DNA of 64,000 nucleotides, from contig CBDDOO010000001.1 of NCBI GenBank assembly GCA_965231905.1, forward strand, positions 869,130 to 933,129, written 5' to 3'. Of this stretch, positions 2,029 through 56,700 are shown in pieces; within the stretch, counting starts at the first letter, position 1; each line of letters begins with the position of its first letter. Both the position numbers and the translations under genes were made by a program. A model generated the notes under the pieces. That model saw nothing but the letters and a program-made list of their open reading frames with translations, made no database searches and was not told where the DNA came from. The DNA is from Arenicellales bacterium (lineage in GTDB: Bacteria > Pseudomonadota > Gammaproteobacteria > Arenicellales > Poriferihabitantaceae).

Positions 2029-2045
2029 GGAAACAACGATTCACG

Positions 2046-2813: not shown

Positions 2814-2871
2814 TATCCTTGATGCCTGATCGAAGATTTGCCTGCGGGCAGCTTTATCCGGCGTCGCCAGT

Positions 2872-3234: not shown

Positions 3235-3300
3235 GAAATGGGACCCCGGGGTGAAGTTCGTATTGTACGCGAATTTCAGGGCCGGATTGGGGATGGAGGT

Positions 3301-5250
<1,950 letters not shown>

Positions 5251-36505: not shown

Positions 36506-37588
36506 ACGTTCCGGCCAGACCTGGTCTTCGGTTTTCAGGTGCAGCGTGGTCGTCGGGAAAGCGCATTGGGCGTTGTTGTCTTCAATAATCTTCAGGATGG
36601 CGAGCATGACTTCCTGCTTGATTCTGAAATATTCCTTCCCGTTTTGCGTTCTGGTGAAGCAGTAAATAAAGAAATCCAGCGATGACGGGGCGAATGTGGT
36701 GAAGCTGACCATCAGGGTCTGATCCGGGTCGATTTCTTCGTGGGATTCGAGATAGGTTTTCACCTGCGCCACGATGTCGTCCATCGCAACGGCGTCATCG
36801 TAACGGATTCCGATGGTTTCGTAAATCCGCCGGTTTTTCATGCGAGTGATATTCTCGATCGAGATAGTCGAAAAAGTCGAGTTCGGCACATACAGCGCCC
36901 GGCTTTCCAGGGTCCGGATCAGGGTGATTCGCCACCCGATCTTTTCCACTATTCCTTCGATTTGTTTGTCCGGGGAGCGAATCCAGTCGCCGATGAAAAA
37001 CGGGCGATCCAGATAGATCATCAATCCGCCGAAGAAATTGGAAAGCATGCCCTGGGCGGCAAACCCGACCGCGATGCCGCCAATCCCGCCGAACGTCAAA
37101 ACCCCCGCAACGCTGAGTCCGAGGGTCTGCATCGCCACCAGAGACGCGATGATCAACACCGTCAACCGCAACAATTTTCCGATGCTGGTGACCGCGAACT
37201 GATCGACTTCTTCGCCTTTTCCGGTTTTCCTTTGGATCAGGTTTTGCTGGATATTGTTGATGAATCGAACCAGAAACCAGGCGATCGCGGTAATCGCGCC
37301 CAAATCCCTGGCCGGAACGATGGCTCCCGCAATCGGCGTGTCCAGGCCGGCCGCAGCGGTTTCACAGGCCAGACCGACACCGACCACCCAGATCATCAAT
37401 CGCAAGGGGGGGGCCAGCGCATTCAGGAAGGCGCCATTCCATGACAGTCCACTACTATCCAGACGTTTGCGCAAAAACGCCAGGATTCCCCGGGTCGCCA
37501 GACTCAAAGCCAGGGTCACGGCCAGAATCACGATCACCTGCAACATCAGTGAATCCCGGTCGAACAGATTGATGAACGAGTCAGGCAT
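36491..37588 (-). CDS. MscS-family mechanosensitive channel (YnaI-like)
   Basis: GGIGGIAVGFAAQ..LSNFFGG..IY.DRPF..GDWI, GWR.T, YVPNS.F. Confidence 0.92.
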   Translation of the reverse strand: MPDSFINLFDRDSLMLQVIVILAVTLALSLATRGILAFLRKRLDSSGLSWNGAFLNALAPPLRLMIWVVGVGLACETAAAGLDTPIAGAIVPARDLGAITAIAWFLVRFINNIQQNLIQRKTGKGEEVDQFAVTSIGKLLRLTVLIIASLVAMQTLGLSVAGVLTFGGIGGIAVGFAAQGMLSNFFGGLMIYLDRPFFIGDWIRSPDKQIEGIVEKIGWRITLIRTLESRALYVPNSTFSTISIENITRMKNRRIYETIGIRYDDAVAMDDIVAQVKTYLESHEEIDPDQTLMVSFTTFAPSSLDFFIYCFTRTQNGKEYFRIKQEVMLAILKIIEDNNAQCAFPTTTLHLKTEDQVWPERLSDS

Positions 37589-37917
37589 TATTCTGTCAGT
37601 CCGTCAGCCTTCGGGAGATCAGCCTGTCTGGCCCATCCGGTATAGCCGCCATTCAGACTGTAGCTTTGACTGAATCCCTGTTTGCTGAAAAAATCCGCCG
37701 CGCCCTTGCTCATGTTGCCGTGATAGCAACAGACAATCAGTGGCCGCGATTTATCCGCGCCTTCAATAAAGGACTGAACGTTGCTGTTGTCGATATGGAT
37801 GGCGTTCCTGATATGCCCCGCTGACCAGGACGCGGCATCCCGGATATCAACAATAATCGGGTCCTGACTGTCGATCAGCTCCCTGGCGTCTTCAATGTCT
37901 ATGTTGTTGTATGGCAT
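37588..37917 (-). CDS. glpE: Thiosulfate sulfurtransferase GlpE
   Basis: VDIRD, GHI, CYHGNMSK.AA, SL.GG. Confidence 0.9.
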   Translation of the reverse strand: MPYNNIDIEDARELIDSQDPIIVDIRDAASWSAGHIRNAIHIDNSNVQSFIEGADKSRPLIVCCYHGNMSKGAADFFSKQGFSQSYSLNGGYTGWARQADLPKADGLTE

Positions 37918-38077
37918 AGATGATGAACTTGTGTTCGAGCAATAGCAGCATCAGGTCTTTGTCCAGTTCGCTGTCTTCATCAATCATCGCCAGCAATGAT
38001 TCCCGACCCGGACGCGATGTATCGTACTCCTGTTTCAGGGCCTGGATACGGTCTCTTATTGGCCGGGTGGTTGGCAT
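37892..38077 (-). pseudogene. Short chimeric ORF; N-terminus resembles that of certain Fic-family proteins
   Basis: RIQALKQEYD..RPGRESLLAMIDE recalled as a Fic N-terminal helix (not searched); TATAAT 6 nt before the ATG. Confidence 0.4.
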
Positions 38078-38083
38078 ACCGCC

Positions 38084-38182
38084 ATTATACTTTATTCACG
38101 GTATATTATGAAAATAACGTGAATAGAGCCGTAAATATGATAATCATTCACTAATTATGAGTGATTAACAGTGAATCAATCG
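38084..38182. promoter_or_regulatory. Double palindrome ATTCAC-N19-GTGAAT (copy 1) overlapping a minus-strand sigma70-like promoter
   Basis: Palindromes at 38094-38124 and 38146-38176; minus strand TTCATA-N17-TATAAT-N6-ATG. Confidence 0.65.
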
Positions 38183-38212
38183 CGATTTTGGGGGGCGATG
38201 GCTATTTTTCAC

Positions 38213-38638
38213 CTAACGGACACTGACCAGTACATCGCCACCTAATGAACGGATAAATCGCTCCAGAGTATCGGCTTTGGTATTGTGGCGTGGATTGAGG
38301 ATACGTCGTACTTCGCTTTCTTTGATGTCCAGCGTTTCGGCAATAGCTACTTTAGTTTGACCGGATTCACGGAACTTGATATAGGCAGCCGCTTTCAGCG
38401 CGGTGGTTACTGGCACTGAAACCAGTCGTTCTCCGGCTTGTTCAGCTGAAGGTTCGGGAATTTCCCGACCTTGATTGATACAGCCGCAAATGGCCTCATC
38501 CAGGGCATCGGCAGCCTCGACAAGCGCTTCTTCAATCGTATCGCCCTGAGTAATTACTTCTGGCATATCCCGGCAGGTGACAACGTAGCCGCCTTCATCA
38601 GGGTCTTCGGTAAGGATAACAGGATAAATATATTTCAT
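38213..38638 (-). CDS. hicB: HicB antitoxin with C-terminal HTH
   Basis: YPVIL....EGGYVVT..D.PE.ITQGDT.EEA, EIPEPS, VRRILNPRHNTK. Confidence 0.92.
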   Translation of the reverse strand: MKYIYPVILTEDPDEGGYVVTCRDMPEVITQGDTIEEALVEAADALDEAICGCINQGREIPEPSAEQAGERLVSVPVTTALKAAAYIKFRESGQTKVAIAETLDIKESEVRRILNPRHNTKADTLERFIRSLGGDVLVSVR

Positions 38639-38641
38639 GGT

Positions 38642-38854
38642 TCATATCTCCGATTTGTCAATGCCCAGCTGTTTTAACATGGCGTGGCAAGTACCTGTTT
38701 TCAGTTCATCTTTCGGGTTTCTCAGGATTGTATATCTGTCACCATAGTAGAGAGTTATATGGCTGCCTTTCCCTCGTTCTTTGTTTACGTCAAACAACAA
38801 ACCTTGAGCTTTTGCCAGTTTTTTCACTCGTTTCATAAATTCGTTTCCGTTCAT
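38642..38854 (-). CDS. hicA: HicA toxin
   Basis: RGKGSH..LYYG, ELK.GT..AMLKQLGI; start MNGNEF. Confidence 0.9.
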   Translation of the reverse strand: MNGNEFMKRVKKLAKAQGLLFDVNKERGKGSHITLYYGDRYTILRNPKDELKTGTCHAMLKQLGIDKSEI

Positions 38855-38994
38855 AGTTCTTAATATCGAACAAAATTGATCGACAGTCAAATCTTTATTT
38901 AATAACTGTAAATTTCTGGTAGACCCTCGTCGTAGGTGCTACACTGGATACATCACAGAAATCATTTCAAACCCTGGCCCATTCGAGTTACGCT

Positions 38995-39150
38995 ATGAAC
39001 AAGAAAAGTCCCAAACCTTCGGATTCATCAAGAACTGGTGCCAGTAGCTCCCAAACAAATCGGGACAGCGTACAACATCGACAACAGTCCAACAAGGTTA
39101 CGAATACTCACCCTCCGCCAAATAAAAAACCAACCAAGAAAACAAGCTGA
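38995..39150 (+). CDS. 51-aa low-complexity small protein (below the ORF-track cut-off)
   Basis: MNKKSPKPSDSSRTGASSSQTNRDSVQHRQQSNKVTNTHPPPNKKPTKKTS; ends 22 bp before the 2TM gene. Confidence 0.5.
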   Translation: MNKKSPKPSDSSRTGASSSQTNRDSVQHRQQSNKVTNTHPPPNKKPTKKTS

Positions 39151-39172
39151 TGAAAAAATGCCGGAATAGAAT

Positions 39173-39700
39173 ATGACTGAAGAACCGACAAGCGAATACG
39201 ATAGATTCCAGTTTGATGTACGTCGGTCGGTACGTTATCACGACAGGCGCGTGTCGTTTTTCGAGATGTGCCACAAGGTCGTTCTGTTCATAGCCCTGAT
39301 TGGCGGGTCAGCCAGTATAGCCACTTTTACAGCCGAGTTTGCTTCTGATTGGCCGCAATGGTCAAAACTTCTTCCAGCTGCGGTGATTTCTGTATTTGCT
39401 GGCCTGGACCTAGTGGCGGGATCCTCCAACAAAGCCAGAATTCATGACAGATTGAAGCAGCGTTTCATTGCCTTGGAAAGTAGGATGCAACGGGAAGAAA
39501 CAGGCAGTGTGCTGAATGAATGGACAGTCGAACGATTGGCAATTGAATCTGATGAACCGCCGGTTCTGAGAGTACTGGATACGTTATGCCACAATGAGTT
39601 ATTGCGCTCAATGGGGTATTCAAAGGATGAATATATTCCGGTGAAAAGACTTCAACGGTTTTTCTCTCCCTTCTTTGACATGGGCGCGGACGCGCTCTAG
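39173..39700 (+). CDS. SLATT-like 2-TM protein
   Basis: RSVRYH.RR..FF helix, two TM segments, A..H..L..RF..L helix, IE.DEPP; SLATT assignment is by architecture only. Confidence 0.6.
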   Translation: MTEEPTSEYDRFQFDVRRSVRYHDRRVSFFEMCHKVVLFIALIGGSASIATFTAEFASDWPQWSKLLPAAVISVFAGLDLVAGSSNKARIHDRLKQRFIALESRMQREETGSVLNEWTVERLAIESDEPPVLRVLDTLCHNELLRSMGYSKDEYIPVKRLQRFFSPFFDMGADAL

Positions 39701-39860
39701 CCTCCGTTGCCTGCATATAACCGTAGTCGTGGCGCTGGCGGAAATTGAAAACGACGATTGCGATTTCACTGGTTATCAGATTCTCATTAGTGCTGTGCAG
39801 CGTATTGGCGCTTCTATTGTCCACCGTCGCAAGTTATTTATTGAATGATGGAGAGTGGTT

Positions 39861-40202
39861 TCAAAGATCCGGTTCACTTTGCGTCCAGGCATGAAATTCT
39901 TCACTACGCAGAATATAGAAGATATAGTTTGTAAGCATCCGATTCTCGTTTGGCCTAATGGCGGCAATTCCTCGACCTATACAGATTCGGCTTGTCGTCA
40001 AGTTGACAGGCCCGACAGGGGCACGCACGGACATAAGAATGTCGCCTTCCTCGGCGAATCTCTTTGGGTCAGTAGTCCATTTTGTCGGCTTGCCAATAAA
40101 CATTCTTTTAAACTCGGCTTTTCCTTGATAGAACGGCATCCCTATACCAGTATCATTGTATGATTTCCCCGGCGGTGATTGTCCGCTTCCAATCTTCCAC
40201 AC
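39861..40202 (-). pseudogene. Orphan HsdS target-recognition-domain fragment
   Basis: GQSP.G..YN.TG.G.PFYQGKA.F.....KPTKWTT...A...DILMSVRAPVG..N.....ICIGRG.A shared with TRD1 of hsdS at 16.2 kb; conserved flanking helices absent. Confidence 0.85.
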
Positions 40203-40221
40203 TCCCTTCTCTCAAATTCCC

Positions 40222-40308
40222 TATTCACTATATATTACAAAAATAGAGTGAATGGTATGAATATGGTATTGATTCACTGAATATGAATCATAGACAGTGA
40301 ATCAATCG
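40222..40308. promoter_or_regulatory. Double palindrome ATTCAC-N19-GTGAAT (copy 2)
   Basis: Palindromes at 40223-40253 and 40272-40302, the latter with 12-bp perfect arms ATTGATTCACTG/CAGTGAATCAAT; degenerate direct repeat of 38093-38182. Confidence 0.7.
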
Positions 40309-40330
40309 TATAAGTGGGCAAACCAAGAGC

Positions 40331-40356
40331 GTAGGGGCAGGTCACCGTACCTGCCC
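40331..40356 (+). repeat. GTAG-type REP at the higB truncation point
   Basis: GTAGGGGCAGGTCACCGTACCTGCCC. Confidence 0.78.
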
Positions 40357-40375
40357 GGAACGGTGAAGATGTATC

Positions 40376-40522
40376 CTGAGGATTCCACCCGGTAATCGAT
40401 TGGAGTCATTGGCAGGTAATAGAAAGGGGCAGTATAGTATTCGTATTAATGAGCAATTTCGTATCTGTTTCAAATGGGGCGAGTCTGGCCCATTTGAAGT
40501 AGAAATCATTGACTATCACTAG
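40376..40522 (+). pseudogene. higB: HigB (killer-type) toxin, 5' half missing
   Basis: [34 protein letters not shown]...EVEIIDYH*; in-frame stop just upstream and no start codon. Confidence 0.88.
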
Positions 40523-40531
40523 AGGTATACC

Positions 40532-40882
40532 ATGGTTCGCATACCTGTACATAGAGAGCCCACTCACCCGGGAGAAATGCTGATCGAAGAGTTTTTGCAT
40601 CCGATGCAAATTACCCAGCGTGAATTGGCGGACGCCATCCATGTGTCGTATCAGCGAGTGAATGAACTGGTCAATCAAAAGCGTGGCGTTACGCCAGGTA
40701 CCGCATTACGCCTGGGGAAGTTTTTTGGGATGTCGGCTGATTTCTGGCTGAATCTCCAGGTGCGTCATGACCTCTACAAAGCTCAGAAATCCGAAAGCGC
40801 CGCACTGGAAAAAATTCATGACTTCCACCATTCAAAAAATGGCTTGACCACTCAAGGCGCCCGCCATCAAATCAGCCAATAA
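40532..40882 (+). CDS. higA: HigA/VapI antidote protein
   Basis: PTHPGEML.EEFL.P..ITQ..LA, RVNELVN.KRG.T..TALRL.KFFG.S..FWLNLQ. Confidence 0.93.
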   Translation: MVRIPVHREPTHPGEMLIEEFLHPMQITQRELADAIHVSYQRVNELVNQKRGVTPGTALRLGKFFGMSADFWLNLQVRHDLYKAQKSESAALEKIHDFHHSKNGLTTQGARHQISQ

Positions 40883-41003
40883 CCGCCGGTATCCGGTACA
40901 TACAACTGAACCCGGACTGCATTTTGTTTGTCAACTCTGGTATTTGCCTGACGACAAAATATAACTATAATGGTCTTGATATTTTAACCAAACAGGTCAT
41001 TTT

Positions 41004-41294
41004 ATGACGACTGCAACCGTATCAGAACTAAAAAGGTCAATCAGCGCTTGCCTGCGTCAGGTCAAGGCCGGTGAAGAACTGTTGATTACCGAGCACGGCC
41101 GTCCCGTGGCGCGCCTGTTGCCGGTCAAGGATATAGCGTCTTTGCCCGAAAGCCTGCTGGACATGGAAAAACGGGGATTGTTGAAACGCCCTGAAAAAAA
41201 CCTGTCGGCTGATTTCTGGAGCCTGCCGCGCCCTGCGGATCCAAAGGCAACAGTGCGTTCGGCAGTCTTGCAGGAGCGGCGGGAAGGCTGGTGA
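41004..41294 (+). CDS. Phd/YefM-family antitoxin
   Basis: ATVSELK..IS..LR.VKAGEE..ITEHGRPVARL.P; C-terminal ERREGW. Confidence 0.9.
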   Translation: MTTATVSELKRSISACLRQVKAGEELLITEHGRPVARLLPVKDIASLPESLLDMEKRGLLKRPEKNLSADFWSLPRPADPKATVRSAVLQERREGW

Positions 41295-41438
41295 AATTTT
41301 GGGATACATCGGCTATTGTCCCCTTATGTATTGACGAACCAGACTCTGACAAGTGAACAGGGCTTTGTTTCCTTTGATCAGCGATTGCGTGACGCGGCAT
41401 ATCGGGAAGGCTTTGACGTTCTTCCCGAAGGGCGTTGA
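41291..41438 (+). pseudogene. VapC PIN toxin with a large internal deletion
   Basis: MKFWDTSAIVPLCIDEP joined out of frame to FVSFDQRLRDAAYREGFDVLP*; the central part of the PIN domain is absent. Confidence 0.88.
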
Positions 41439-41683
41439 AACCAGCGAACAGACTCCGGTTTGGTATTGGTAATCCGGTACATACAACTGAACCCGGACTG
41501 CATTTTGTTGTCATTGATGAGTCGGGCTGTGCTATAATTCCGGCTTTTATGCTGACCGTCGCTGGCTAAAGGTAGCGTTTGGCTGCGAATAGTCGCAAGT
41601 CTTTGACAGCTATTGATGATTCTGATATTAGGGCTATGGGTATACTGGGAACAAGCGACTTATCCGAGAGCGATAATATATAT

Positions 41684-41702
41684 CCCCCCCCCCCCCCCCC
41701 CC
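41684..41702 (+). repeat. C19 homopolymer 52 bp upstream of the giant gene start
   Basis: ATATATAT-C19-GTTCTG. Confidence 0.9.
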
Positions 41703-41754
41703 GTTCTGCATGTTGAATCCGGCGGCGTTTAGCGGCGTGGCTTATTGACAGGCG

Positions 41755-44700
41755 ATGGGTTCCCTGAACAGAATGTACGTCCATCCGGCAAGAAGACAGG
41801 TGAACGCCTGCGCCGCGGGCATTCGGGCGTTCAGTCCGTGGCGCCTGTTCGGCCTCCTCGCGCTGGTCGCTGTCGGTATTTTGACCATCATGGAGCCGGC
41901 GCTGGCGCAGGGGGGCACATTGTCGTCCCCGAAAGTCTGGTATGAAGGCGATGGCCAGAAAACATTGCGGTACATTGTCAAGACGACCGGCAAATACGAC
42001 GATGTCGGTAAAACATACACCATCGAGACAGCGGGCACAGCCACCCCGGCAGACGACTATGTGCTGGGAACTCCCGTCAACTCGAATCTGGGTTCGCCAA
42101 ACAACAGTCACAGACTTGACCATGTCAAGGTGCCGATCGAGTTCAAGACGGACGGCCTGAACGAATCCGACGAGACCATCGTGCTCAATTTTTACTGCGA
42201 CTGCGGCGCCAGCGATGAAAAGACGCTCGCAAATACCTTCACCCTGAAGCTGAAGAACGCCGCCCGCCCGGTCCCGAAATTCAGCGTGACCAGTATCAGC
42301 CTGGACGAAGGCGCAACGGCTACCTACGGATTATCACTGGACGCCGACCCGGGCGCCAGCGAAACGGTTGTCATTGACGTGCGGCCTTCAATCCGTGGTC
42401 TGAACCCGCATGTCGGCCCCGTAAAGGTAGGAAAAACAGCCAACGCGCTGGTTGACAGCGCGAGTTTCAGTTTTACCGGAGGGCCATCCGGCACCTGGGC
42501 GACGCCGCAGATCGTCACGTTACAGGCGGGAAACGACTGGGAGACCGTGGACTACAGCGTCGAGCTGGTGCATCAGGTCAACCAACAGCCCATTGACCAA
42601 CTCACCGAAAGGCTGACGGCGTCAGTCACCAATAAAGTCGCGGGTCTGCTCGTCTCAGAGACGGCCCTGACGGTGGAGGAAGGCGCGGTCGCTACATTTT
42701 CAGTGCAACTGATAGGAGATCCGCTGAATAATGGAAGTGTGTTTATCGAAATCCCGATAGCGCAAAGAGATTCGTTTGGGATACGGCCCGGAAGGGAGGT
42801 GGCCAGTGCAAATTTCAGAGCGCCGACTGCGATCACTCAGTTCCGAGGCAGTAAAATTGGCAGTCCAAATTGGGAGGATCCGATATTCTTCACGGTCAAG
42901 GCGCTCAAGGATGTTGATCTGGAGGATGTCACCATCACTCTGGCGCCTGTTCTCACGCTGACGACACATCCTCGCTCCGGAATAAACGCCTTCCCCAATC
43001 GGACAGGCGCGGGCGTGAAAGTGACTGCGAAGGAGGTGGTGACTCCATTGACTCGACCCACCCTCTCAACCACAACGCTGAATGTGGCTGAAGGCGAAAC
43101 CATGCAATACACGGTGGATTATCCGCAGTTGAAGGCAACCACGGTAACGGTCGATATTCCCGCGAGCCACCAGGGCAAGGCGACTGTGCAGGCTGCGGGC
43201 GGACAGCCCGGCGCCAGCGTGGTACTCGAGTTCAAAGAATATATTCTGGTGCCCGGAATGGATCCCCCCCCCCCACGGAAGCCTCATACCGTCACGGTGA
43301 CAGCGTCCCGGGACACCGATACGACCGATGAATCCTTTGACCTCACACACACCGCCCCGGCGGGATACAAGTGGAGTGGCGGCGACCTCGCGGTTGCTGT
43401 CGCGATCACCGACGCCGGTACTGGCCTGAATGTCTCCGCCCTCAAGTTCGACGAACACGACCCTGCCGCTCCCTTGAAGCTGAGTGAAGGCTATAGCGCG
43501 ACTTACACGGTCTCCCTCAAGTCCTGGCAGAGCGGCACAGTCACGGTGACCCCGGCTTCAGATTTCTCATCGGTGACCGTCTCGCCCACAACCCTGACCT
43601 TCAACGGCGGCAACTGGAGCGAGCCGCAGACGGTAACGGTCACCGCGATAGAAGATGAAAACGCTTTTGACGAGAAGGCCACCATCAGCCATGCCGTCAG
43701 CGGTTATGGCGATGTCGATACCGGACCCGAAATCAAGGTGAACGTGGATGACGATGAACATCCCGTCAGCGCAAAACTCACCCTGCGCATGACCGGCAAG
43801 GGCGTATTCAAGGAAGGATCAGGCCGCGATACAGAGGCCCGTGTCGAAGTCGAGTTGTTCGGCCCGGACGGCTATCGGGACCGCTTGCCGCAAACGGATT
43901 TCATACTCTGTTATACCCTGGGCACTCTGGGCAAGCAAAATGTAAAGCCAGTGGCGAAATCCGAAGGAATAGCGGATAACTGCGTTGATTGGTTCATATC
44001 GGAATTCGTGGGACTACCGTCCGTAGTCAGGAGCTTCGAAGTCTTTGAACTTCTCCACTCGGACTCGGACCCGCTCTCGCTGGACCTGGGAACTGTCACA
44101 GTTACGCTGAAAGCGCATCCGACCCTGACGATGCATGACCGGGTCAGCATCAGCTCTACCGAAAAGGAGTTCGAATTCCGGGCTATTGACTCAACCCCCA
44201 CACAAATAGAGATGACCGCCGATGGCCCGGCCAGCATCCATGAAGGCGACGGCAGGGTTTTGTTCGATGTCGGATTGAGCCGCCGTCTGGTTGCCGGCGA
44301 GGAGGTGCGAATTCCGCTCGTAGCCAGCGGTACGGGTATCGCGGATGACGACTACGAGATCGCGCTCCGGTCCGGCACAGGCGCCACCCTCAGCGCCGCG
44401 GCTCCCTATACACTGACACTGGCCGGCGCCGGAGCCAAAGACGTTGTGCTTATGCTGACCGCCGTCGAAGACCGCAAGAACGAAGGCGGCACAAATGAAA
44501 CATTAACCCTGACCCTCGGCGAGGTGACCAGCAACCTGGATGTCGAGGACCTCACAACCTTTGGTACCGGGGGCACCGAACTGAAATCCGCCAAAAGCTT
44601 CTCGGTGGACATTGTGGATGGTATCACCCTGAGTCTCAGCGCCGGCGCCGCCGTTACTGAAGGTGGAGACGCTGTTTTCACCGTCACAGCCAACCCGAAT

Positions 44701-47700
44701 CCGTCGGCGCCGCTGACCGCCAACATCGGCATTGCCCAGACGGGCGCTTTTGTCGCCGACGCCGACATTGGTACGGACAAAACCCTCACCATCCCGGTAG
44801 CCGGCAGCGCGGACTATACCGTAAAGACACTCGATGACACAACAGACGAGCCGGACGGGGCGGTGACCGCCACGCTGATCGACAGTTTCGACTACGCCAT
44901 CGAGACCGGTGGCGGCAGTGTCACCGTGAAAGACAATGACGCGACCACCGTGACACTTTCCGCTGCCCCCACCAGCGTCAGCGAAGGCGGCGATGTCACG
45001 GTTACCGCCACGTTGTCCCTGGTCCAGGCCGCGGATGTCACCATCCCCATCACCGCCAGCGTGGAATCAGGCGATAGCGCTGAAGAGGTCGATTTCAGCG
45101 CTCCCGCGAGTATCGTGATCAAAGCGGGCGACCTCACCGGCAGCGCCGACATTGCCACGGTCAAGGACGCGGACAAGGATACCGATACGTTTACGGTCGC
45201 TCTGGGGACGCTGCCCGCCGGCCTGGTCGCCGGTACGCCTGGCAAGGCATCTATCAGCATCACGGATGACGGAGAAGGCGCCACCGTCAACCTGTCTGTG
45301 GCCGCGACCACCGTCAAGGACACGGATGACGTCCGCGTCACGGCCACTCTGAGCCATGTCTTCGCCAGCGATATTACTGTGCCGCTCCGCGTCACCGCTA
45401 CCGGCGCCAATCCCGCCGCGACCACCGAGTGGGTCGCGCCGGGCGGCATCGCCATCCGCAAAGGCATCGCCACGGCCAGCGTCGCGATTGATATTATTCG
45501 CGACCAGGACAAGGCCGATGAAACCTTCACCGTCAGCCTGGGCAGCCCGTTGCCGACCAACCTGTCCGCAGGGGCAACGACCTCATCTGAAATTATCATC
45601 GACGATGACGGTCTGGGACACAATATTACCCTGTCGGCGGACCCCAACCCGGTTGACGAGGGCAGTTCCACCACCATCACCGCCACCGCCAACGGCAGTT
45701 TTGACGCCGATACGGTCATTCCCCTGACCTTCAAGGGGCACGGGACCGCCAAAGCGGAGGACGGCGACTACGAGGCGCCGGACAAGGTCACCATCGCCAG
45801 CGGCGCCACCAGCGGCTCGGTCACGCTCAGCGCCAATGGCGACCGTGATGAGGACGATGACGTGGTGCGGGTAGCGTTGGGCTCGCCGTTGCCGGCTGGA
45901 GTGATTGGCGGCAACCACCAGGACATCACCATCACGGACACCGGAGTCGCGACAGGACCGACGCTGACCCTGAGCATTGATCCGGAACCGGCTTCAAACG
46001 GAGATATTCAAGTGGATGAAGGCAGCGCCGTGACTTTCACCGCCACGCTGGATAAAGCCTGGAGCCAGGATATTACGCTTGAACTGGCAAGCGCTGATTC
46101 GGGTGATTCGGGTGACCCGGAGCACGCATTCCTCAGCGCCAGCGAAGATGACTATACCACCCTGTCGAACATCACCATCGCGAAAGGAAAAACCTCCGGC
46201 AAAACCACAGTTACCGCGGTTGCGGATGGCGAGACTGAACCGGGAACGGACGAAGTTTTCCGGGTTTCTGTATTGGCCAAGAAACTGCCTGATCTGGTGT
46301 TCTATACGTCCGATCATGTTTTCCCGGGATCGGATGATCTGTACTATGTCTACATCGAAGACCAGGACAAGCCGAAACCGAAGATCAGCATTGAACTCGA
46401 TTCACGTTCGCGGAATGTGAAGGAAGGGGACACGGTCCGGTTCAAGCTGACATCTGCGGGCGGCGTACCGTCCGGCGCGGTGAAGCTCAAGGTGGAGGAG
46501 GATGGGAAAGTTCTGCCGAATGGCGCATCGGGTGACAAGACCTTCACCATGACCAGCGCCAGTGACGAATACAGCATCACAACTACGGCAGACAAAATCG
46601 ACGAGCACGCCAGCGCCATAACGGTCACTCTGGTTGCAGACCCCGCCTACCAGATTGACGAGACCAAAGGCAGCGCCACAGCGACGGTTAAAGACGATGA
46701 CCCGACGAAGGTGGGAATCAGTGGGAGCGCCACCGAAATCAATGAAAGCGGCGGTACCAAGCTGATCACCATCACGCTGAATCGGGAGCTGGTGGCGGGC
46801 GAGAAGCTGCGCGTGGAACTGGATCGCAGGGGCGGTGACGCCCGGTTTCCCAATGATTTCCTGCTGACTCTGAGAAAGAATAATGGGGTGAGTTTTTCAA
46901 CTGAGAAATCGACGAACTCGGCCCTTGGATTTTCCGGTGTGGTGCCCGTAATCACCTTCACGGGCCCGACCGGTAAAAAGGCGGATCTGGATCTCACGGC
47001 TGTTGACGATAAGGTGAATGAAGGCGCCAGCGAATCCGTCAAGCTCTCCATCGTGACTCCTGTAACCAAGCCCGAATTGGGTGGTGGCGGCGCCATCGCC
47101 AAAACAGACACGAATGTAAAACAAAATGTAGCATTCAACATCAAGGACGACGATACCAAAAGGACCCACAATGTCACTGTGGCGCCGACCACCCTCACAC
47201 TGAATGAGGGCGAGCAAGGCGAATACTATATTCTTTTTGGTACAGGGTATACAAGTGACGAAGTGGATGAAACTAATTTCCGTCACGAATACAAGGCCAC
47301 GCCTGCCTATACGGGGAATGCGGTTACCTTTTCTCCGCCGGAAGTTTCTGTTGAAGCTTTCCGAGGCTGGGGTACAGCTCAAAAAGTCACAGTCACCGCC
47401 GTCAACGACAATCAGGTCAACGAAAAACCTCGCACCGCGATGATCACCCACAGTGTCGCAGGCTACCCCAATCTTCCTGGCGTTGATAACATTACCACCG
47501 CCCCCAGCGTCACCATCACCGTCAACGATGACCGCTCCGGTCTGGAAGCGGATAGCGAAACCGTGTCGTTCCCGATCACCAGGCCCAGAGGCTACAAAAT
47601 CAAGCTATCGCTCAAAACCCAGCCGACAGGCAACGTCACGGTCAAAGTCGCAAGCAGCGACATCAACATCGTCGCCTTCGCAGGATCTGATTTTGGAACC

Positions 47701-50700
47701 AGAAACTGTAACTCCTCCGGCGCGTCGCCCCCCACATTCGGGTTCGGGCCGAGCAACTGGAAGTCGTTCGACCGTTTCGTCTGTATCAAAGGCCTCAAGG
47801 AAGGCAAGGCCAATATTACTTTCAGCGTCGGGGCTACGGCTGACACTCGCTATAAAGGCAAAACACTGGTCGTGCCGGTCACCGTCACAGCCGATTCGCG
47901 CCCGACTGTGGAGTTGTCAGTTGACGCCAACCGGGTCAATGAGGGTGGTTCGCTCACGCTCAAGGCCACTCTGAGCGCCGCCGCGACGGCTGCAACCACG
48001 ATTCCGCTGGTCTATACCAACGGTACTGCGGAAGATGCCGACTATACGAAAGCCACAAGCATCACGGTTGCCAAAGGACAGACTGAGGGCACGGCCCCTT
48101 TCGCTACCGCCAACAATAATATCTACGAAGGCGATGAGACGGTCACCGTCCGGCTCGGAACCCTGCCGGGAACCGTGCTCCCGGGAACGGTCACCGAGCA
48201 GATGATCACGATTGCCGACGACGCTGATCTGCCGACGCTCGAATTCCTGGACGCCGCCAACCGGGCGCCAGTGCCCGAAGATGAGGGCATGTATGATGTG
48301 GCGCTGATCTGGAGAGGGCAAAGTGAACTGGATTCCAGCATCGACTGGACGACAGCCAATGGCTCCGCGACAGCAGGCGAGGACTACACGGCCGCCAGTG
48401 GCACGATTACCCGCAAGGCCGGTTCCACCAGCGCTTCCGATCAGTTCAAGGTGACCATCACCGACGACTCCGTCGACGACCCCGGCGCCGCTGAAACCTT
48501 CACCATCACCTTGTCGAACGCATCAAACGCCAAGGTGGGAACCAAGTCGGTGCATACCGTCTCGATCACCGACAATGACCCCACTGAACTTCGCCTGATC
48601 ACCCGATCCGGCAACGATATAGCCGAGGCCGCGGGCACAGGGACGATTGATGTCGAGGTGGTGCGCGACCTCGCCACCGGCGAAAGCGTGTCGGCGCCGC
48701 TGGTTTTCAGCGGCGACGCGTCCTTCGGCGTTGACTACACCCTGTCGGCGCCGAACCCGAAACCGAAGGGCGTGACCTACTCCCATCTCGCCAGTAAAGA
48801 CCCTGCGAAAAACCCGCCGACGATTGCCTTTACCGCCGGCAATGGCCACAAGCGCATCGCTCCTTTGATCATTACCGCTGTCCAGGACACTGCCGATGAA
48901 GGCGCCGATGGCGCCGGGGAAGACCTCACCATCGCAATCGGCAAGAGCTCCGCCACCGGCTTTGGCGGCGGCGTCCAGGTGCGGGCAGCCGAAGACCGTC
49001 ACACGTTCGCCATCACGGATGATGACGACCTGCCCACTATCAGCGCCGCCGCCGTCCGTGTCGCCGAGGGAGATGCGGGCGAGACGCCAACGCTCCGTTT
49101 CACGGTCAGTCTGAGCCCGGCCAGCGGCCGTTCGGTCAGCGTCAACTATGCGGATGGGGCGTCCGGCACAGCCACTTCGGGCGCCGACTACGCGGCCGTC
49201 ACCGCCGGCGCGCTCACTTTCGCGCCGGGCGAGACCAGCAAAACTGTAGATGTCATCCTCACCGGCGATGTGGACGATGAACCCGATGAAACCATCGTCC
49301 TGCGCCTGTCGGCGCCGGTAAACGCGGTCTTTGCCGGCAAAGCCACGACCGTGGATGTCACCGGTTCCATCACGGATGATGACGCCACCGGCGTCAGCCT
49401 GAGCGCCTCCGGAGCAACCCGCCTTGCCGAAGGAGACGCCACAACCAGCGTCTCGCTGGCGCTGGAACTGGCCCGCGACCTGAAGCCGGATGAGATCGCC
49501 GAGATTCCGCTCGACATAACCAGCGCCACCGGCGTCGCCATCACGGCCGCCGCGCCCGCAAACCGTGACTATATCCTGACCGCCGCCGGAACCGGGGTCA
49601 CTGTGACGGGCGCCGCCACGGCGGCGCCGAAAATCAGGTTCACCGGCGGCGCCGCAACCGAGCGCTCCGCCACCATCCAGTTGACGGCCACTGCCCGGGA
49701 CGATAACGACGCGCAGCATGAAACCCTGAGCGTAGCTCTCGGCAACCTGGCGGACAGCGCGCTTGCCACCACCCTCTCCGGCGGCCTCGCGGCGATCGTC
49801 GACAATGACCCCAATACCGACGACAACGAGGTCGAGATTTCAATTACCGACGATGAGGCTGCCCTGCCGCTGCTGAATCTGGCTCTCGCCGACGGCGCGA
49901 GCGCCCCCACAGAAGGTTCGCCGGCGCAATACAAGCTCACGTTGTCTCCGGCGCCGGTCGCGCCGCTGTCCGTCAAGATCACGGTAGCCGAGGAAAGCGA
50001 CGATACGCTCGACTATATCGCAACTACCGAAGAGGGGGAGCGCACACTCACGGTTGCCGCCAGCCAGTCCGTTTTCAATTTCAGCGTGTCGACCGTGGAC
50101 AATACCCGCGATGAGGATGACGGCGGGGTGGTGGTTACCCTGGTCGCCGACAGCGCATACCGCATCGGTAGCAATAGCGCCCATACCATTGCCGTGATGG
50201 ACGATGAGGTCACGGCGTTGACCCTGACTCGCAGCGACGACCCGGACCCGGTTCATGAAGACGGCGGCGCGGCGGAGCTGGAATTCAAGCTCAAAAAGGC
50301 GCTGGGCGCCGACAGCGCCGTCACCATTCCCCTGTCCATACAGGGCGCTGTATTGCCCACACACGCGACATTGACCGTTAAAGCCGGTCAGCCCGGAGTA
50401 CGCCTGCTCACCACGAGCCCCTACAGCGCCGCGCAGCCGGCGCTGGAGATCCAGGGCGCCGGCCTGACCACGGCGACGCTGGTACTCACCGCCGTCGCGA
50501 ACAGCGATGAGATGGAGCGCACCGTGAGCCTCGCCCCGAGCGGTTCCATCTCCGTGGTGGGCGCCGGGTTCAGCGGGGGCGTCGCCTGGTCCGGGAAAGC
50601 CATAGACATTGACATCGCCAACGATGACGGCATGCCGGAGGCCCGCATTCTCGCGGCGGCGGACAGGGTGGAGGAAGGCGATACCATTGAGCTCCACCTG

Positions 50701-53700
50701 CATGTACGGCCGGTGCCGAAAGAGCCCCTGTACATCCGGGTTGATTTCAGCGATCCGCATGAAACCATTGGCCGGGTGTACGGGGCGGGTGAGACGAGCA
50801 GTAAAGGTGGCGGCGTTTATTACTTCAGCTTTCCCGCCGGTTGGACAGCGCCTCGAATCATTGAGGTAGTCAGTAAAGAAGACAATGAGGATCGTCCGGA
50901 TGTCCGGTTTGAAGCGGTTGTCGCCGCCGGCCAGGGGTACAATGTCGCCGCCGCGCCCGACAACCGCGCGCGCGTCCTGGTGATCGACGACGATGATAGC
51001 CCATTCCTGAGCATTGCCGCCGGTCCCGCTGTCGTGGAAGGCAACCGCGCGGTATTTACCATTACGCGCAGTAATCCCAGAAGTGTCAGCCCCCACTTTC
51101 CAGCGCCAAAGGTACGTCTGAAGATTTCCCAGACAGGCGATGTCGTCAAAGCCGGCGAACTGGGCGTCAAAAAGCCTCGATTCATCGGCGATTCCATGAC
51201 ACTGACTGTTGAAGTCGAAACCGTTAATGACGACAGCGACGAGGCCAACGCGCAGGTCATTGCCGAACTTCTGGATTGCCCGACAGGAAAATTTGGAACC
51301 TCTACTGTCAGTACATGCACCATACCGCCGCCGCCCGACCACCAGGTTTCGGTTCCGGTGAACGACAATGATCCTGCTGTCGCCATGGTGAATATCCGCG
51401 GCGCTCCGCTTGCGCTGTCGGAACGAAAACTCGAACAAGGCGCCTACGAAGTTTTTCTGCAAACCGACCCGGGCCAGACTGCGACGGTGCGCGTGGATGT
51501 TCCGGCGGCGCACACAGACGCGGTCTCCGTCCAGGCGCCCGGCGGGACGCCCGGCGCCAGCGCCACCCTGAGTTTCACCGGCGGCTCCTCAGGCAACTGG
51601 AATACGCCACAGGCCGTCACCGTCTCTGCGCTGGCCGATGACGATATAACGGACGAGACCATCACGCTCAGCCATACGGTAACGGGCTATCCGGGAGTCA
51701 CTTCAGCGCCCGATGTCGAGGTCCGCGTGACGGACGCCAGGCACGGAGTTGTGACCGACAAGACCCGCCTGGAGGTGCGCGAGTATGACGGCACAGCCAC
51801 TTACCGCGTACGGCTCGGCAGCGCTCCGACGGCGGCTGTAACCGTGACGCCGGTCAGCGGCAATGCCGGGGCGGCCACGGTCAGCGGCCCGCTCACTTTT
51901 ACCGCCGTCAACTGGAAAACCTGGCAGGATGTGACGGTAACGGGTGTGGTGCGAAACGGACCCAACCCGATCCAGCTGACTCACCAGGTCTCCTCCAGCG
52001 ACGCAAGCTACAGCAGTTTGCCGGCTGCCCGGATCAGCGTTGTTTCCGTATCCCTGTTGAGAGACCAGCGCCCGGGAGTAACCCTTGCCGCTGACCCCAA
52101 CCCGGTCATCGAAGGTACGAGCGCCACGGTCACCGCCACCCTGGACCGGATCATTACACCTGCCAAAGCCGTCACGATCCCGATCAAATTCGGAACTGCA
52201 AACGCGGATTTCGTCCCGGTATCCGGCATACCGATTGCGGCGGGCCAGAAAAGCGGCAGCGTGAGCGTCATGACGGTAGAAGACAGCGAGTATGAACCCA
52301 ACGAGGGTTTCCGGGTCGAAATTGACACCGATCAGTTACCGGAGGAGCTGTATCCGCGAGCGCGGTCATCCGTGTTGATCAGGATTGACGACGACGAGGA
52401 CAAGCCGCGCATTGCCACTTTGTCGGTGTCGCCGACAAGAGTCCATGAATGTGGCAAGCCAGAGAATGAAGGTTGCAGTGACGACGATGAAAGCGACAGG
52501 GATTCCGAAAAAGACGGCGAAGTCACGGTGACCGTTACACTCGATGAGGCGCTGAACTCGCCGGCGCGGGCCATCACCATTCCACTCGCCTACACAGACA
52601 GCGGCGCCGTCGCAGACGCGGACTACACGCGGCTGGCCAGCGTCACGATCGCCGCAGGCGAGACACAGGGCACGGGGAAAATCAGAATTATCAACGATCA
52701 GATTCACGAATCCAGTCAGGATTTCGTGGTGAAGTTATCCGGGAATTTGCCGCCTGCCGTCCGGGCTGGCGATCCGGCTCAGGTGACGGTGAAAATCCTC
52801 CGGGATGGGTCGGAAAGTCCGCCTCATTTCCGGTTCGACCGCGCGGGTGTCTACATAGAAGATGACTCGAATTATCGCGATGTCAGTGAAGGCGTCGGCA
52901 TGCTGCCCATGAAAATCTACCGGGATGGTGAAACCGAGGACACGATTACCGCAGGTGTCGATATATCCAGAAATGAGGACCTGAAAGGATACCGCCTGCG
53001 CTGGCAGGAAAATGTTACGTTCTCGCCGAAGGACACCAGCAAAACCATCCGGATTCCAATTCCTGACAACAGGACCGATCAAATCGAGAGTCACACGCTT
53101 GGTTTGTCTATCCGGGGTACGGTCACGAGGGGGTGGCCTAATGATCTCACAATCAGAGTCGTTGATGACGACCCGATTCTCGCAACCCTGGAGCCGGGCG
53201 CCGACCTGGAGCTCTTGGAAGGCGACTCCAGCAATAAGGCCACGGCAAACCTGAGCCTGTCCCGGAATCTTGAAGAGGGGGAGATGGTTGAAATTCCGCT
53301 GCTTCTGACCACATCCACCGGCGCCGCATTGCCCGGGTCCCTGGCGATGTCTGCCGCCAATGGAAAGGGTTGCAAGGTCTCCGTAGCATTGCGGTATACC
53401 GATACCGCGCGACCCAGAATCAGAATTACGGGAGTAGATTCAGAACAGAAATTCCCCTCCTGCGTAGCGGTCTCTTTTGACGCGCGTCACCATGATAGCG
53501 ACACGACCGAGGAGGAGATCAAGGTTTCGTTTGGTGACTTTACGGATAAGACTCTGGTGACGACGTCCGATGGGGGAGTGGCGGAAGACGTCGGCAACAA
53601 TACGGTTACTCTGGAGATCCTGGACGATGACCAGGAAGCGGACGGATTTACGTTGAGTGTCGATACCGGCGCCGTTGCCGAGGATGTATCGGTGGCGCCG

Positions 53701-56700
53701 ACGATTACGGTAACCGCGGAGGCCAATACGAGAACCGCCTTCAACAAGGAACACAGCATCACCGTCAGCGTAGGCGCGTCCGGGGACCAGGCCAAAGCGC
53801 CCGCCGATTATGCGGCAGTGACTGATTTCACCATCACCGTGCCCGCGAACCAGAAAAGCGCCACCGGCACGTTCGTCCTGGCCCCGGTCGATGACAGCAT
53901 CGACGAGGCCGACGAGATTCTGAGTGTAACCGGCTCATCCGGCAACATCTTCGTGCGTCCGGCAACCATCGCCATAACCGACGATGACCCGACGCCGGCC
54001 CTGACCCTTGCGCTTGTCCCCGCGACCATCAGCGAAAGCGGCGCCGCCAACGCGAGCGTCGTCAGCGCCAGTATGAATGGTCTGTCAGGAGAGGACATCG
54101 AGCTGGTGGTTTATACGGAGAAAATTTCCCGGCATGCCGTCCCTGGCGACCTCGCTGTAAGCGAGAATGCCGTTCTGACCATTTCTTCCGGAGCCACCAC
54201 CAGTACCGGCCCGGTTACCTTGACCGCAGTGGACAACAGGGTGGATTCAGATGATAAGGAGTTCCGGGTCTTCGCCCGCGTCAGGAAAGGTCACGGCGTG
54301 GTCTCTCCGTCTCCCCTGACGCTGACCGTCACGGACGATGATACGCGCGGCGTGACGATCGCGCCATCCGCGCTGGCCCTGGACGAAAAAGACGACGACA
54401 GTACCATGGCGACCAAAGAGCACGAGGGCGAGTACAGCGTTGTGCTGGACAGTAAGCCGAGCGGCGATGTCGTCATCAATCTGGCCAGTGACTCGACCGA
54501 CCTGACGATTGCCCCGGTGAAGCTCACCTTTACTCCGGCGAACTGGAACACGGCGCAGAAAGTCACCGTCACTGCGATAGATGACGCCGATATTAACCCG
54601 GAGTCAACCCGCGCCGCCGCCATCCGCCATACAGTGGCCGCGTCCGGCACGGACTATGCCTCTGTCAAGGCGGCCCCGCTCAGCGTCACGATCCAGGATG
54701 ACGAGGGGCGGCAAGTGGAGATTGCGCTGGATGACGCCGATGGCCGGGTTGTTGAAGGCGGCAGCGCCAATGTCTCCGTGTCTCTGAGCGGCGGTACGCT
54801 CAGTAATAATCTGGTCGTACCGATCACGGTCAGTGGCGCCCAGGCGGCTGATTACAGTTTTCCCGCAGGCATCACCATTGCCGCTGGCGCAACCAGCGCC
54901 AGCGCCGCCATCAGTCTGGTGGACGACGCGGTTGACGAGCCAACGGAAACTCTGACCCTGGCCATCGGGACATTGCCGGAGCCGGTGCGCGCGGGTTCGG
55001 TGAAGTCGGTGGAGCTGGCCATTATTGATGGAGACGCCACCAGCGTGGTGATGGCGCGGGCGCCGCCCGACTCCACCAGCGCCATCGCCGAGAATGGCGG
55101 CGTCGCGGAAATGACCGTGACTGCCGGGCGCGCTCTGGTGGGTGGCGAAACGCTCACCGCGCCGTTGACTGTCAGCGGTTCCGGCGTCATTGCCGCCGAC
55201 TATCGCGTACGACTGAAATCCGGCGCCAGTCTGAACAGCGGTGTCACGCTGAATACCGCTGACCCCTACAGCCCGGGCGCCCCGGCCCTGGTATTTACCG
55301 GCAACGATTCGACCACCTCGCCGGTGCGTATCGCCACACTCGAACTGGTCGGCGCCGACGACAGCATCGACGAAGGCGATTCGGAAACCATCAGCCTGTC
55401 CTTTGGCAGTGTTGTCAGCAATCTGGACCGCGTTTCCGGTACAGGTACAGGCGGAACTTCGGCCAGCGGCGCGGTGGCGGTGGAGGTTACGGATGATGAC
55501 GCGACGCCGGTGGCGACGCTGGTACTGACGCCTTCGAGCATCGCCGAGAGCGGGAAGGGGAATGTCAGTACCGTGACCGCGACGTTGAGCGGGGAGTCGA
55601 GCGAAGCGGTGGTCTTGACGGTATCGGCGGCGGCGGTGGCTCCGGCGGTGGCGGGGGACTTTGCGTTGATGAGTAGTACCAAAGAGTTGACGATTGCGGC
55701 CGGCGCCTTGAGCAGTAGCGGGGTAGTGACGGTGACGGCGGTGGACAATGATGTAGACGCCGCGAACAAGAAGGTGACGGTATCGGCCGGCGCGAGCGGC
55801 GGGCATGGAGTGGCGCCGCCGGCGGGCGTGGCGCTGACGATCACCGATGATGATACGCGCGGGGTGGTGGTGCCCACAGGTGTGGAATCTGTGGTCAGTG
55901 TGCGCGAGAGCGATGACACCGGCACCCCTTCCCAGCGCGAAGACCAGGCGACCTATACGGTGAAGCTGGCGAGCGAGCCGACCGGCGGCGATGTGACGAT
56001 TGCGGTAGCGAGCGCGGACACGGACGCCGCCACGGTCTCCCCGGTGAACCTGGTATTCACCGCCAAAAACTGGAATGTGGCGCAGACCGTAACGGTCAGT
56101 GGGGTGAACGATGACGTGCACAACACCAACGACCTGCGTACCACGTACATTTCCCACATAGTGAGCGTGTCGGGCACGGATTACGATTCGGTGAGGTCGA
56201 GTCATCTTGTGAATGTGGTGGTGAATGATGATGATGGTCCGCCGACCGGGGTGAGGCTGTCGGTGAACCCGGCGAGCGTATCGGAAGACGCTGGCGCCAG
56301 GGTGGTGACGGTAACCGCGGCGCCGACCGGCGGTTCGGCCTTTGCGGAGTCGAAGACAGTGCGGGTGACGGTGGGCGCGGCGACGGACAGCGCCGATTCA
56401 CCGGCGGACTACGCGGCGGTGAGCGCCTTTGACGTAACGATTGCGGCTGGCGCTCCGAGCGGTACGCAGACCTTCACGCTGACGCCGGTGGATGACGACA
56501 TTGATGAAGAGGCTGGCGAAGCGATTTCGGTGAGCGGCGCGCTGTCCGGCTTTACCATTGACCCGGTGAGCGTGACGCTGACCGATGAAGATGAGCGCGG
56601 GGTTTCGGTGACGCCGGTTGTGCTGACGCTGGACGAAGAGGACACGGCTTCGACGCCGGGTACGACCGAGAATGTGGGGACTTACGAAGTGGTTCTGGAG

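Follow-up and report, generated by a model that had tools for sequence, protein, structure and literature searches.

The closest described counterpart of the locus examined here is CccR of Yersinia pseudotuberculosis. CccR combines a Fic toxin with a C-terminal helix-turn-helix (HTH) and forms a dimer whose DNA-binding helices lie 70 Å apart. Its footprint, AGATAATCAT-N26-ATGATAATCT, has 10-bp arms with a 26-bp gap and lies near its own -35 and -10 boxes; CccR represses its own gene, and both the negative autoregulation and the need for a dimer were demonstrated (PMC9755527). Here, we describe four palindromes of the form ATTCAC-N19-GTGAAT in a 64,000-nucleotide stretch of the genome of an Arenicellales bacterium (assembly GCA_965231905.1, contig CBDDOO010000001.1, positions 869,130 to 933,129; referred to as the window). 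The two loci share a widely spaced inverted repeat over the -35/-10 region of the gene's own promoter; in the window, ATTCAC-N19-GTGAAT encloses the -35 box of a truncated fic gene. The four palindromes are likely to be two leftover operator-promoter regions of a horizontally spread, self-regulating fic gene, whose product would repress its own transcription.

Results

Four palindromes form two double sites in the window

The pattern ATTCAC-N19-GTGAAT was scanned over the window and over the whole 2,908,481-bp genome, with the backwards pattern as a control and 100 shuffles as the background. Exactly four matches were found in the window, starting at 38094, 38146, 40223 and 40272, and these are the same four that a sequence-only reading of this DNA had picked out. 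The shuffles give an expectation of 0.01, and none of them reached four matches. Genome-wide, the same four sites and no others were present, and the backwards pattern did not occur. Around its hexamers, each site extends into a longer, imperfect palindrome whose arms measure 18–19 nt. The sites are grouped in two direct repeats of about 90 bp, A (38091–38182) and B (40220–40308). The repeat comparison agrees with the sequence-only reading that these double sites have the same orientation and that both end in ACAGTGAATCAATCG; the homology spans TATTCAC to CAATCG, with 82% identity over the 49-nt distal part.

The motif scan and the repeat comparison suggest that double site A, on the minus strand, is the promoter/operator region of a fic stump, with a proximal and a distal palindrome. 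A sigma-70-type promoter can be read from the sequence (38084–38112), in which the -35 box TTCATA (38112–38107) and the -10 box TATAAT (38089–38084) are separated by a 17-bp spacer. The presence of this promoter and its leaderless-type layout had been recognized before; its strand proves to be the minus strand, where 6 nt separate the -10 box from the ATG at 38077. Site 1 (38094–38124), the putative proximal operator, encloses the -35 box and places its fic-side arm in the -35/-10 spacer. Site 2 (38146–38176), the putative distal operator, follows at 52 bp, measured start to start. Double site B (minus strand) appears from the motif scan and blastn to be a second, more divergent fic operator region. 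Its proximal operator would be site 3 (40223–40253) and its distal operator site 4 (40272–40302), which repeat analysis places within a palindrome with 19-nt arms at 40268–40306. Copy B has AATTTG at the -10 position, and neither a usable -10 box nor a start codon is present.

Forty related genomes, including seven other genomes of the genus, were also scanned for the motif. Three of the seven congeners (G002, G005 and G006) have one double site each, located directly upstream of a full-length fic gene of 290–318 aa whose product matches Pfam PF02661 (E 6.5e-20 to 2e-18). In two other genera (G013 and G014), a site lies at -47 of a fic gene with 70–71% identity. Nine single matches with GC-rich spacers in relatives (L005–L009, L013, L014, L017 and L018) are presumed to be due to chance. 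Double site A is 90–92% identical to the fic upstream region of G002 and 83–84% identical to those of G005 and G006; double site B is 76–80% identical to A and to the congeners. Since B remains at this level while A reaches 90–92% to G002, B is a more distant copy and not a fresh duplicate of A.

The fic genes behind both double sites have decayed

The stump behind double site A is a 61-aa open reading frame (ORF; 37892–38077, minus strand) that begins 16 nt from site 1. Alignment with the full-length Fic proteins of G002, G005 and G006 indicates that it retains residues 1–34 and about 94–113 of a protein of ~290 aa, and tblastn matches it to residues 1–34 of Fic at 82% identity. The catalytic motif and the C-terminal DNA-binding domain have been deleted. 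In the sequence-only reading, the stump was placed after copy 1; its actual place is left of this copy, on the minus strand, with transcription directed away from the copy. At copy B, the last ~29 nt of a fic ORF (40188–40216, minus strand; codons about 280–289, ...EKGVWKIG) were identified by alignment and by blastn matches to the fic 3´ ends of G002, G005, L045 and L060. This segment appears to be the sole remainder of the fic gene that copy B once drove.

A fragment of a fused type I methylase-specificity (MS) gene is located next to this remnant (39903–40184, minus strand) and was recognized by DNA and protein matches. The fragment corresponds to residues about 497–591 of an 859-aa protein of G002, with 98% DNA identity to G002 (L019) 3195–3476. 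These positions fall inside an ORF (1704–4283) that carries the Pfam domains N6_Mtase and Methylase_S, the gene being intact in this congener. The fragment shares 72–75% protein identity with MS genes found directly downstream of fic in L053 and L034, and its specificity domain narrowly misses the Pfam cut-off (E 2.8e-4). Judged from these matches, copy B is what two deletions appear to have left of an operator-fic-MS arrangement. Module A holds an internally deleted fic, and in module B the whole stretch from the operator to the last ten fic codons is gone.

No intact orthologue of fic was found in the genome, in which the stump is the best match. Six other Fic-domain paralogues are 26–45% identical, and none of them aligns past residue 235, which indicates that the cognate DNA-binding domain is absent from the genome; nor can these paralogues carry the motif, because the genome holds only the four sites. 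Since the C-terminal HTH_17-type domain of Fic is no longer encoded, both double sites in the window appear to be relics. Another Fic-domain gene in the window, with a match at about 22122–22304 on the minus strand in a 382-aa open frame (45% identity over query residues 163–220), is unrelated to the palindromes.

The fic module is widespread and travels alone

Species-representative genomes were scanned with an alignment of Fic, which gave 111 confirmed relatives, and the best 80 were kept. These 80 loci show 72–100% protein identity. As recorded, they belong to Latescibacterota (28), Gammaproteobacteria (11), Nitrospirales/Nitrospira (6), Gemmatimonadota (5), Rhodothermales (5), Binatia (3), Opitutales (3), Chloroflexota (3), two candidate-phyla-radiation lineages (2) and unclassified 'bacterium' (14). 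The module is present in at least nine higher taxa, and many of the source records are complete chromosomes.

None of the 80 loci has more than two mismatches in the proximal palindrome; 76 have one or none, and 67 match it exactly. The distance from its start to the fic ATG is 47 nt in 69 loci, and site 1 of the window agrees with this position. Further upstream, 39 loci have a second site at 52 bp and 11 have one at 51 bp. The fic-side arm of the distal site reads GTGAAT without change in 65 loci and with at most one mismatch in 79. Three exact sites occur in L033, and four occur in both L045 and L051. Random positions scored identically mostly show 6–8 mismatches. Information content is near maximal on the hexamers and low at most spacer positions, with the exception of the -35 box and of a T-tract midway between the operators. 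The motif, for which the sequence-only reading had proposed a scan of related genomes, recurs in relatives consistently upstream of fic (80/80 loci). One of the two suggestions of that reading, a tandem operator over a leaderless-type promoter that possibly belongs to the Fic-like gene, agrees with the double site upstream of fic.

The block shared between loci in an all-against-all blastn extends from about -100/-75 to the fic stop at +865–875, and the neighbouring genes differ widely between the 20 loci sampled. The sole gene accompanying the sites across the 80 loci is fic. Because the shared block stops at the fic stop and the neighbours differ, the transferred unit appears to consist of the operators, the promoter and fic, about 970 bp in total. 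A homology search of protein clusters at E <= 1e-10 returned at least 8,000 matches; the best 120 of these clusters are all 82–100% identical and carry 'Fic family protein' as their sole name. No close relatives were found in the plasmid and phage collections searched, as all 276 plasmid and 7 phage records fall below 60% identity.

Fic is the simplest candidate binder of the double sites, because only fic travels with them. It is unlikely that the double sites are operators of another regulator, such as a host factor or the product of a neighbouring gene (HicB or HigA). The HTH-bearing antitoxins HicB and HigA do flank the two copies in the window, and Fic is itself a candidate binder. However, neither a constant neighbour nor any shared sequence beyond the block from about -100 to the fic stop accompanies the sites, a host factor would need to be nearly universal to serve a module present in so many taxa, and hicB stands beside a site only in G000 and G006. 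The regulator, for which the sequence-only reading had proposed an unknown defence regulator, possibly the Fic-like gene, is most likely the C-terminal HTH_17-type domain of Fic itself.

The palindromes overlap an apparently leaderless promoter

Of the 80 fic loci, 66 have a TAnnnT -10 box, and in 60 it is separated from the ATG by 6 nt. In 54 loci, a -35 box is found at 17-bp spacing, with the sequence TTGACA in 33 of them. A Shine-Dalgarno-like 4-mer lies upstream of fic in just five loci, and an in-frame stop occurs within 24 nt upstream of the ATG in 71. A -10 box that ends 6 nt before the ATG implies a leaderless mRNA, and the fic mRNA is therefore predicted to be of this type. In the fic loci, the -35 box is situated inside the proximal palindrome, whose fic-side arm falls within the 17-bp spacer; a protein bound on the palindrome arms would flank the -35 box on both sides.

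Fic combines an FICD-like core with a probable winged helix

The core of the Fic protein is FICD-like, with FICD as the best match among solved structures (E 2e-20, residues 21–221). The active-site motif HPFCDGNGRMGR (HPFCDGNGR) is invariant in the Fic alignments. Intact relatives have the Fic domain and the HxFx(D/E)GNGRxxR motif of the Fic/DOC (Fido) family. The stump lacks the active-site region, and the window therefore holds no functional Fic member. Class II Fic proteins carry an inhibitory motif, (S/T)xxxE(G/N), on a helix N-terminal to the Fic core. The stretch S44-N-A-I-E48-N49 is invariant in 38 sequences and aligns with the FICD TVAIEG stretch; it fits this class II motif in sequence.

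Conservation within Fic is highest over the last ~45 residues, and LSAPAVTNAARRQTIPAFREKGVWKIG is nearly invariant in 38 sequences. Modelled alone, this C-terminal domain adopts a strand-helix-helix-hairpin topology (predicted local distance difference test, pLDDT, 94.8). Its best fold match is BldC bound to DNA (Z 4.8, root-mean-square deviation 2.2, 44 residues aligned), followed by a phage P2 DNA-binding protein, the MerR N-domain and Pukovnik Xis, each with Z 4.4. Lower matches include Tn916 Xis, TnrA-DNA, RdfS, GlnR-DNA, BmrR, SoxR and TipAL. Nearly every protein among these top matches belongs to the excisionase/MerR group of DNA binders. The model suggests that the C-terminus is likely an excisionase/MerR-type (HTH_17) winged helix. 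The full-length AlphaFold model has a mean pLDDT of 56 with a poor core, and it still reaches Z 8–10 to Fic structures.

A plasmid-borne Fic of Candidatus Chlorohelix provides independent support; it is 31% identical and aligns through the C-terminal domain, where Pfam reports HTH_17 in the aligned region (E 5.5e-6; 27.0 bits against a cut-off of 27). Its recognition helix differs, and its gene is preceded by another repeat, AGATAATTACTACGAAT-N16-ATTCGTGGTAATTATCT, with 17-nt arms and TATAAT at the centre, which ends 19 nt before the ATG. This homologue appears to have the same architecture with a different specificity. A plasmid Fic of Mycetohabitans was dropped as a further comparison; it gave no C-terminal HTH match, and its upstream repeats are short.

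Autorepression by Fic is the preferred reading

In an intact module, the sigma-70 promoter would start a leaderless fic mRNA. Fic dimers or higher oligomers would place their C-terminal domains on the ATTCAC/GTGAAT half-sites, which lie 25 bp apart centre to centre (about 85 Å), on two to four operators phased at 51–52 bp. Fic on the operators would occlude RNA polymerase, and a potentially toxic AMP-transferase would repress its own synthesis. Both steps, the binding of the sites by Fic and repression through this binding, are inferred.

Several observations weigh against this reading. The far arm of the distal site is exact in just 30 of the 80 loci and often reads ATTAAC, and a second full operator is therefore not universal. 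The high conservation could partly result from recent spread and not from constraint, yet the spacers have diverged and the arms have not. All VIA-align Z scores of the C-terminal model are below 5, which may reflect only a common arrangement, although low values are expected for a small domain. Foldseek of the same model against the PDB gave no match at E <= 0.001. Pfam sees no HTH in the C-terminus of the family, and four C-terminal pieces remained unmatched at E <= 10. Because the recognition helix and the half-sites are both nearly invariant in the 80 loci, covariation does not appear inside the family, and the Chlorohelix homologue is a single data point. The full-length model is too poor to compare the distance between DNA-binding domains with the 25-bp half-site spacing. 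The prediction of a full-length Fic homodimer (score 0.00, mark 0.42) gave no answer and counts neither way.

The double sites do not behave as recombination sites or hairpins

The other suggestion of the sequence-only reading was a multi-subsite recombination site delimiting a cassette, that is, att/attC/dif-type sites at which a recombinase inserts or excises the 2-kb segment. Two direct copies indeed flank 2 kb of low-GC defence-type genes, the gene order of the islet differs among congeners, the C-terminal domain of Fic is excisionase-like in fold, and direct repeats of the fic 3´ end flank inserted genes elsewhere. This explanation is nevertheless very improbable. Across the 80 loci, the position of the site is fixed at -47 of fic, where it overlaps the fic promoter, and A and B are just 76–82% identical. 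Copy B is followed by a fic 3´ remnant, which marks a decayed module and not a bare site, and the edges of the sites do not coincide with the ends of the shared blocks, which are at 40187/40188 and 40361. Among the 22 ORFs between 21 and 51 kb of the window, Pfam detected no recombinase domain.

An excised form, which the sequence-only reading had proposed to look for, was sought on contigs, and no joint of A to B was present in runs X1, X3, X5 and X6, rare excision being beyond the reach of contigs. Contigs of runs X1 and X3 match the arrangement of the window. Only a single joint was observed, from 37918 to 40187; it is weak (side 25) and falls outside the sites. A 1,117-nt contig of run X6 contains 40188–40361 without difference in another context; this block ends at the fic remnant and 53 bp past the distal site, not at the palindromes. 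Searches for the native context of copy B gave only weaker, already known genus matches in 243 genomes of the order, and no matches in two exact-pattern scans of metagenome contigs. The fixed distance to fic, the lack of a recombinase domain in the 22 ORFs and the lack of an A x B joint in the four runs speak against delimited recombination, and the lead of a bracketed cassette is replaced by two decayed gene modules.

A hairpin function of the palindromes at the nucleic-acid level, whether as terminator or insulator, as RNA leader structure, or as single-strand DNA origin or nick site, is barely credible: each site is an imperfect palindrome with arms of 18–19 nt, but 45 of 47 deviating sites are asymmetric with differing arms, so arm pairing is not preserved (the only two symmetric sites provide no covariation signal for a dimer either), the AT-rich spacers hold the -35 box, the predicted transcript start lies downstream of the sites, and Rfam over 37000–42000 at a permissive threshold returned no family, the best match lying elsewhere at a chance-level E of 0.59.

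Intact fic lies among restriction-modification and other defence genes

Intact fic is usually found among defence genes, including restriction-modification, toxin-antitoxin (TA), PD-T4-4 and GmrSD genes. An MS gene is directly downstream of fic in 19 of the 80 loci (14 matches >400 aa), and an HsdR-like helicase (R) gene is directly upstream in 16 (13 matches >500 aa). The module lies between the R gene and the fused MS gene in 13–14 loci. The order R-operators-fic-MS, in which MS is a fused N6-methylase/specificity gene, is seen for example in L027, L033, L038, L040, L045 and L049, and in L052, L053, L057, L059, L062 and others. In G002, the R and MS genes are adjacent with no fic between them. 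Full-length Fic matches the PADLOC models PDC-S04 (E 5.7e-35) and SoFic (E 1.3e-27).

Direct repeats of the fic 3´ end were observed at two loci, with 185-nt copies at 93% identity in L022 (5821–6005 and 7427–7611) and 122-nt copies at 84% identity in L081 (3776–3897 and 5570–5691). In both cases, the repeats flank an insert of 1.6–1.8 kb, which in L022 is a gene for a 404-aa AAA ATPase. At these loci, genes seem to have been inserted just behind fic, duplicating its 3´ end.

The islet around the two copies

GC content is 42–47% across 38.0–41.0 kb of the window, compared with 51–61% around it. Between the modules and part of neither, Pfam identifies a toxin-antitoxin pair, hicB (38213–38638) and hicA (38642–38890), on the minus strand. 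A 51-aa ORF and a 175-aa, two-helix membrane-like ORF follow on the plus strand (38995–39700; ORF list, Pfam and cluster search). The 175-aa ORF has no Pfam match; SLATT_4 is found on a minority of look-alike clusters, and a SLATT relative is possible. The sequence-only reading had listed hicAB, a SLATT-like gene and an orphan specificity domain between the pairs; Pfam bears out the first and the 98% DNA match the last, and the SLATT-like gene is kept as a lead only. The 2 kb between the copies appear to be ordinary defence-islet content between two decayed fic modules.

To the right of B are a 5´-truncated higB, higA, a Phd-type antitoxin gene and a PIN-toxin remnant. In higB (40380–40522), which adjoins an intact higA, only positions 53–91 of the 91-position HigB profile are left, and the PIN toxin (41316–41438), located after the Phd antitoxin, is down to about 40 codons. 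In this islet, toxin genes have decayed and their antitoxins have survived. A perfect 29-nt direct repeat, ATCCGGTACATACAACTGAACCCGGACTG, at 40891–40919 and 41472–41500 flanks the Phd-type antitoxin gene and the PIN-toxin remnant. The distal flank of copy B (40309–40361) is homologous by blastn to the flank of the G002 double site. Within it, a GC-rich hairpin-like element (40321–40361) recurs at 86–96% identity on the other contig of the genome and in G001, G004 and G005; this element may be a small dispersed repeat or a shared terminator. From about 41500 to 58000, GC content is 55–67%, the AT skew is strongly positive and all ORFs of at least 100 aa lie on the minus strand. Nine ORFs tested in this region gave no Pfam match, and the region could represent a giant gene that is degraded or frameshifted, or else an unannotated feature. 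An RTX-repeat gene is located near the corresponding islet of G002.

The gene order of the islet varies among congeners, and hicB adjoins a double site in G000 and G006 alone. In G006, the order is that of the window: glpE, fic, double site, hicB. A second fragment of the fic C-terminal domain, 69% identical, is present in G006 (L021 12627–12743, minus strand). There, the order is fic fragment, a PD-T4-4/PDC-M47 A-B defence pair, hicB and the intact fic module, which repeats the layout of fic remnant, cargo and fic seen in the window. Since this second fragment of the fic 3´ end occupies the corresponding position in G006, tandem fic modules separated by other genes appear to predate this species.

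Discussion

In the window, two decayed gene modules have taken the place of a supposed cassette. Across bacteria, the analysis defines a very abundant Fic subfamily with its own operator array and an apparently leaderless promoter, which has crossed many phylum boundaries nearly unchanged. No description of this palindrome or of this Fic subfamily was found in the literature, which was searched through listings except in the case of CccR. Nor did we find there a description of multi-operator phasing at 51–52 bp, an apparently leaderless start or a spread over many phyla at 72% identity or more. If autorepression by Fic is correct, a defined 31-bp operator and a 45-aa domain make it easily tested. 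The presence of the module in restriction-modification operons, together with its match to candidate defence models, bears on how single-gene defence toxins are silenced.

A more speculative extension, which we regard as quite improbable, is that the module works as a single-gene device for addiction or defence, the part of the 'antitoxin' being played by the operator DNA itself. In the consensus, half-sites recur every ~25–27 bp in alternating orientation across the two to four operators, with T-tracts midway. A Fic oligomer might wrap this array, which would both switch transcription off and hold the AMP-transferase in an auto-inhibited, oligomeric state; loss of the locus, dilution of its DNA or competition by invading DNA would then release the active enzyme. 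Having its own regulator and a leaderless start free of a ribosome-binding site, the ~970-bp unit could work in any bacterial host, and this host independence would account for its presence at 72–100% protein identity from candidate-phyla-radiation bacteria to Proteobacteria. In this reading, the strong conservation of the unit might in addition provide transferable homology through which adjacent defence genes are exchanged, an idea that arises from the tandem fic remnants and from the direct repeats of the fic 3´ end around inserted genes.

Autorepression by Fic, the preferred reading, can be compared with several known systems. Type II TA operators, such as that of Phd-Doc, in which Doc has the Fic fold, also place a toxin-like Fido protein under negative feedback through a palindromic operator that overlaps the promoter. 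These systems have a separate antitoxin gene, whereas here the inhibitory element and the DNA-binding domain would reside in one polypeptide; no separate co-transcribed antitoxin gene was found in the conserved block, which is one ORF. The FICD/HYPE-like class II AMP-transferases resemble Fic in the core, the inhibitory-helix stretch and the active site; FICD itself lacks a DNA-binding domain as well as an operator. SoFic and PDC-S04, single-gene candidate anti-phage Fic proteins, are alike in the Fic core only (residues about 39–237), and the C-terminal domain of SoFic is different and larger. DNA binders of the BldC, Xis and MerR type (HTH_17) have the topology modelled for the C-terminal domain, which here is an appendage of an enzyme. 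BldC and Xis proteins bind arrays of sites cooperatively.

With CccR, the comparison is closest in design. PDB entry 7xux, which we take to be CccR, matches the Fic core only (E 1.6e-7, residues 94–198), and the DNA-binding domains share no sequence similarity and differ in size. CccR has 380 aa with an HTH domain of ~100 aa, compared with ~290 aa and a 45-aa HTH_17-type winged helix here. The fic module further differs from CccR in its half-sites (ATTCAC with a 19-bp gap), its two to four phased operators and its leaderless-looking promoter. For the fic module, nothing points to type VI secretion. The half-site spacing of about 85 Å would fit a CccR-like arrangement. Taken with these differences, the fic module appears to work like CccR without being a CccR orthologue. 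If Fic does bind the sites, the module would extend the principle of CccR, the single experimentally studied Fic toxin that is its own repressor, to another DNA-binding fold, to an arrangement of several operators and to a very wide range of hosts.

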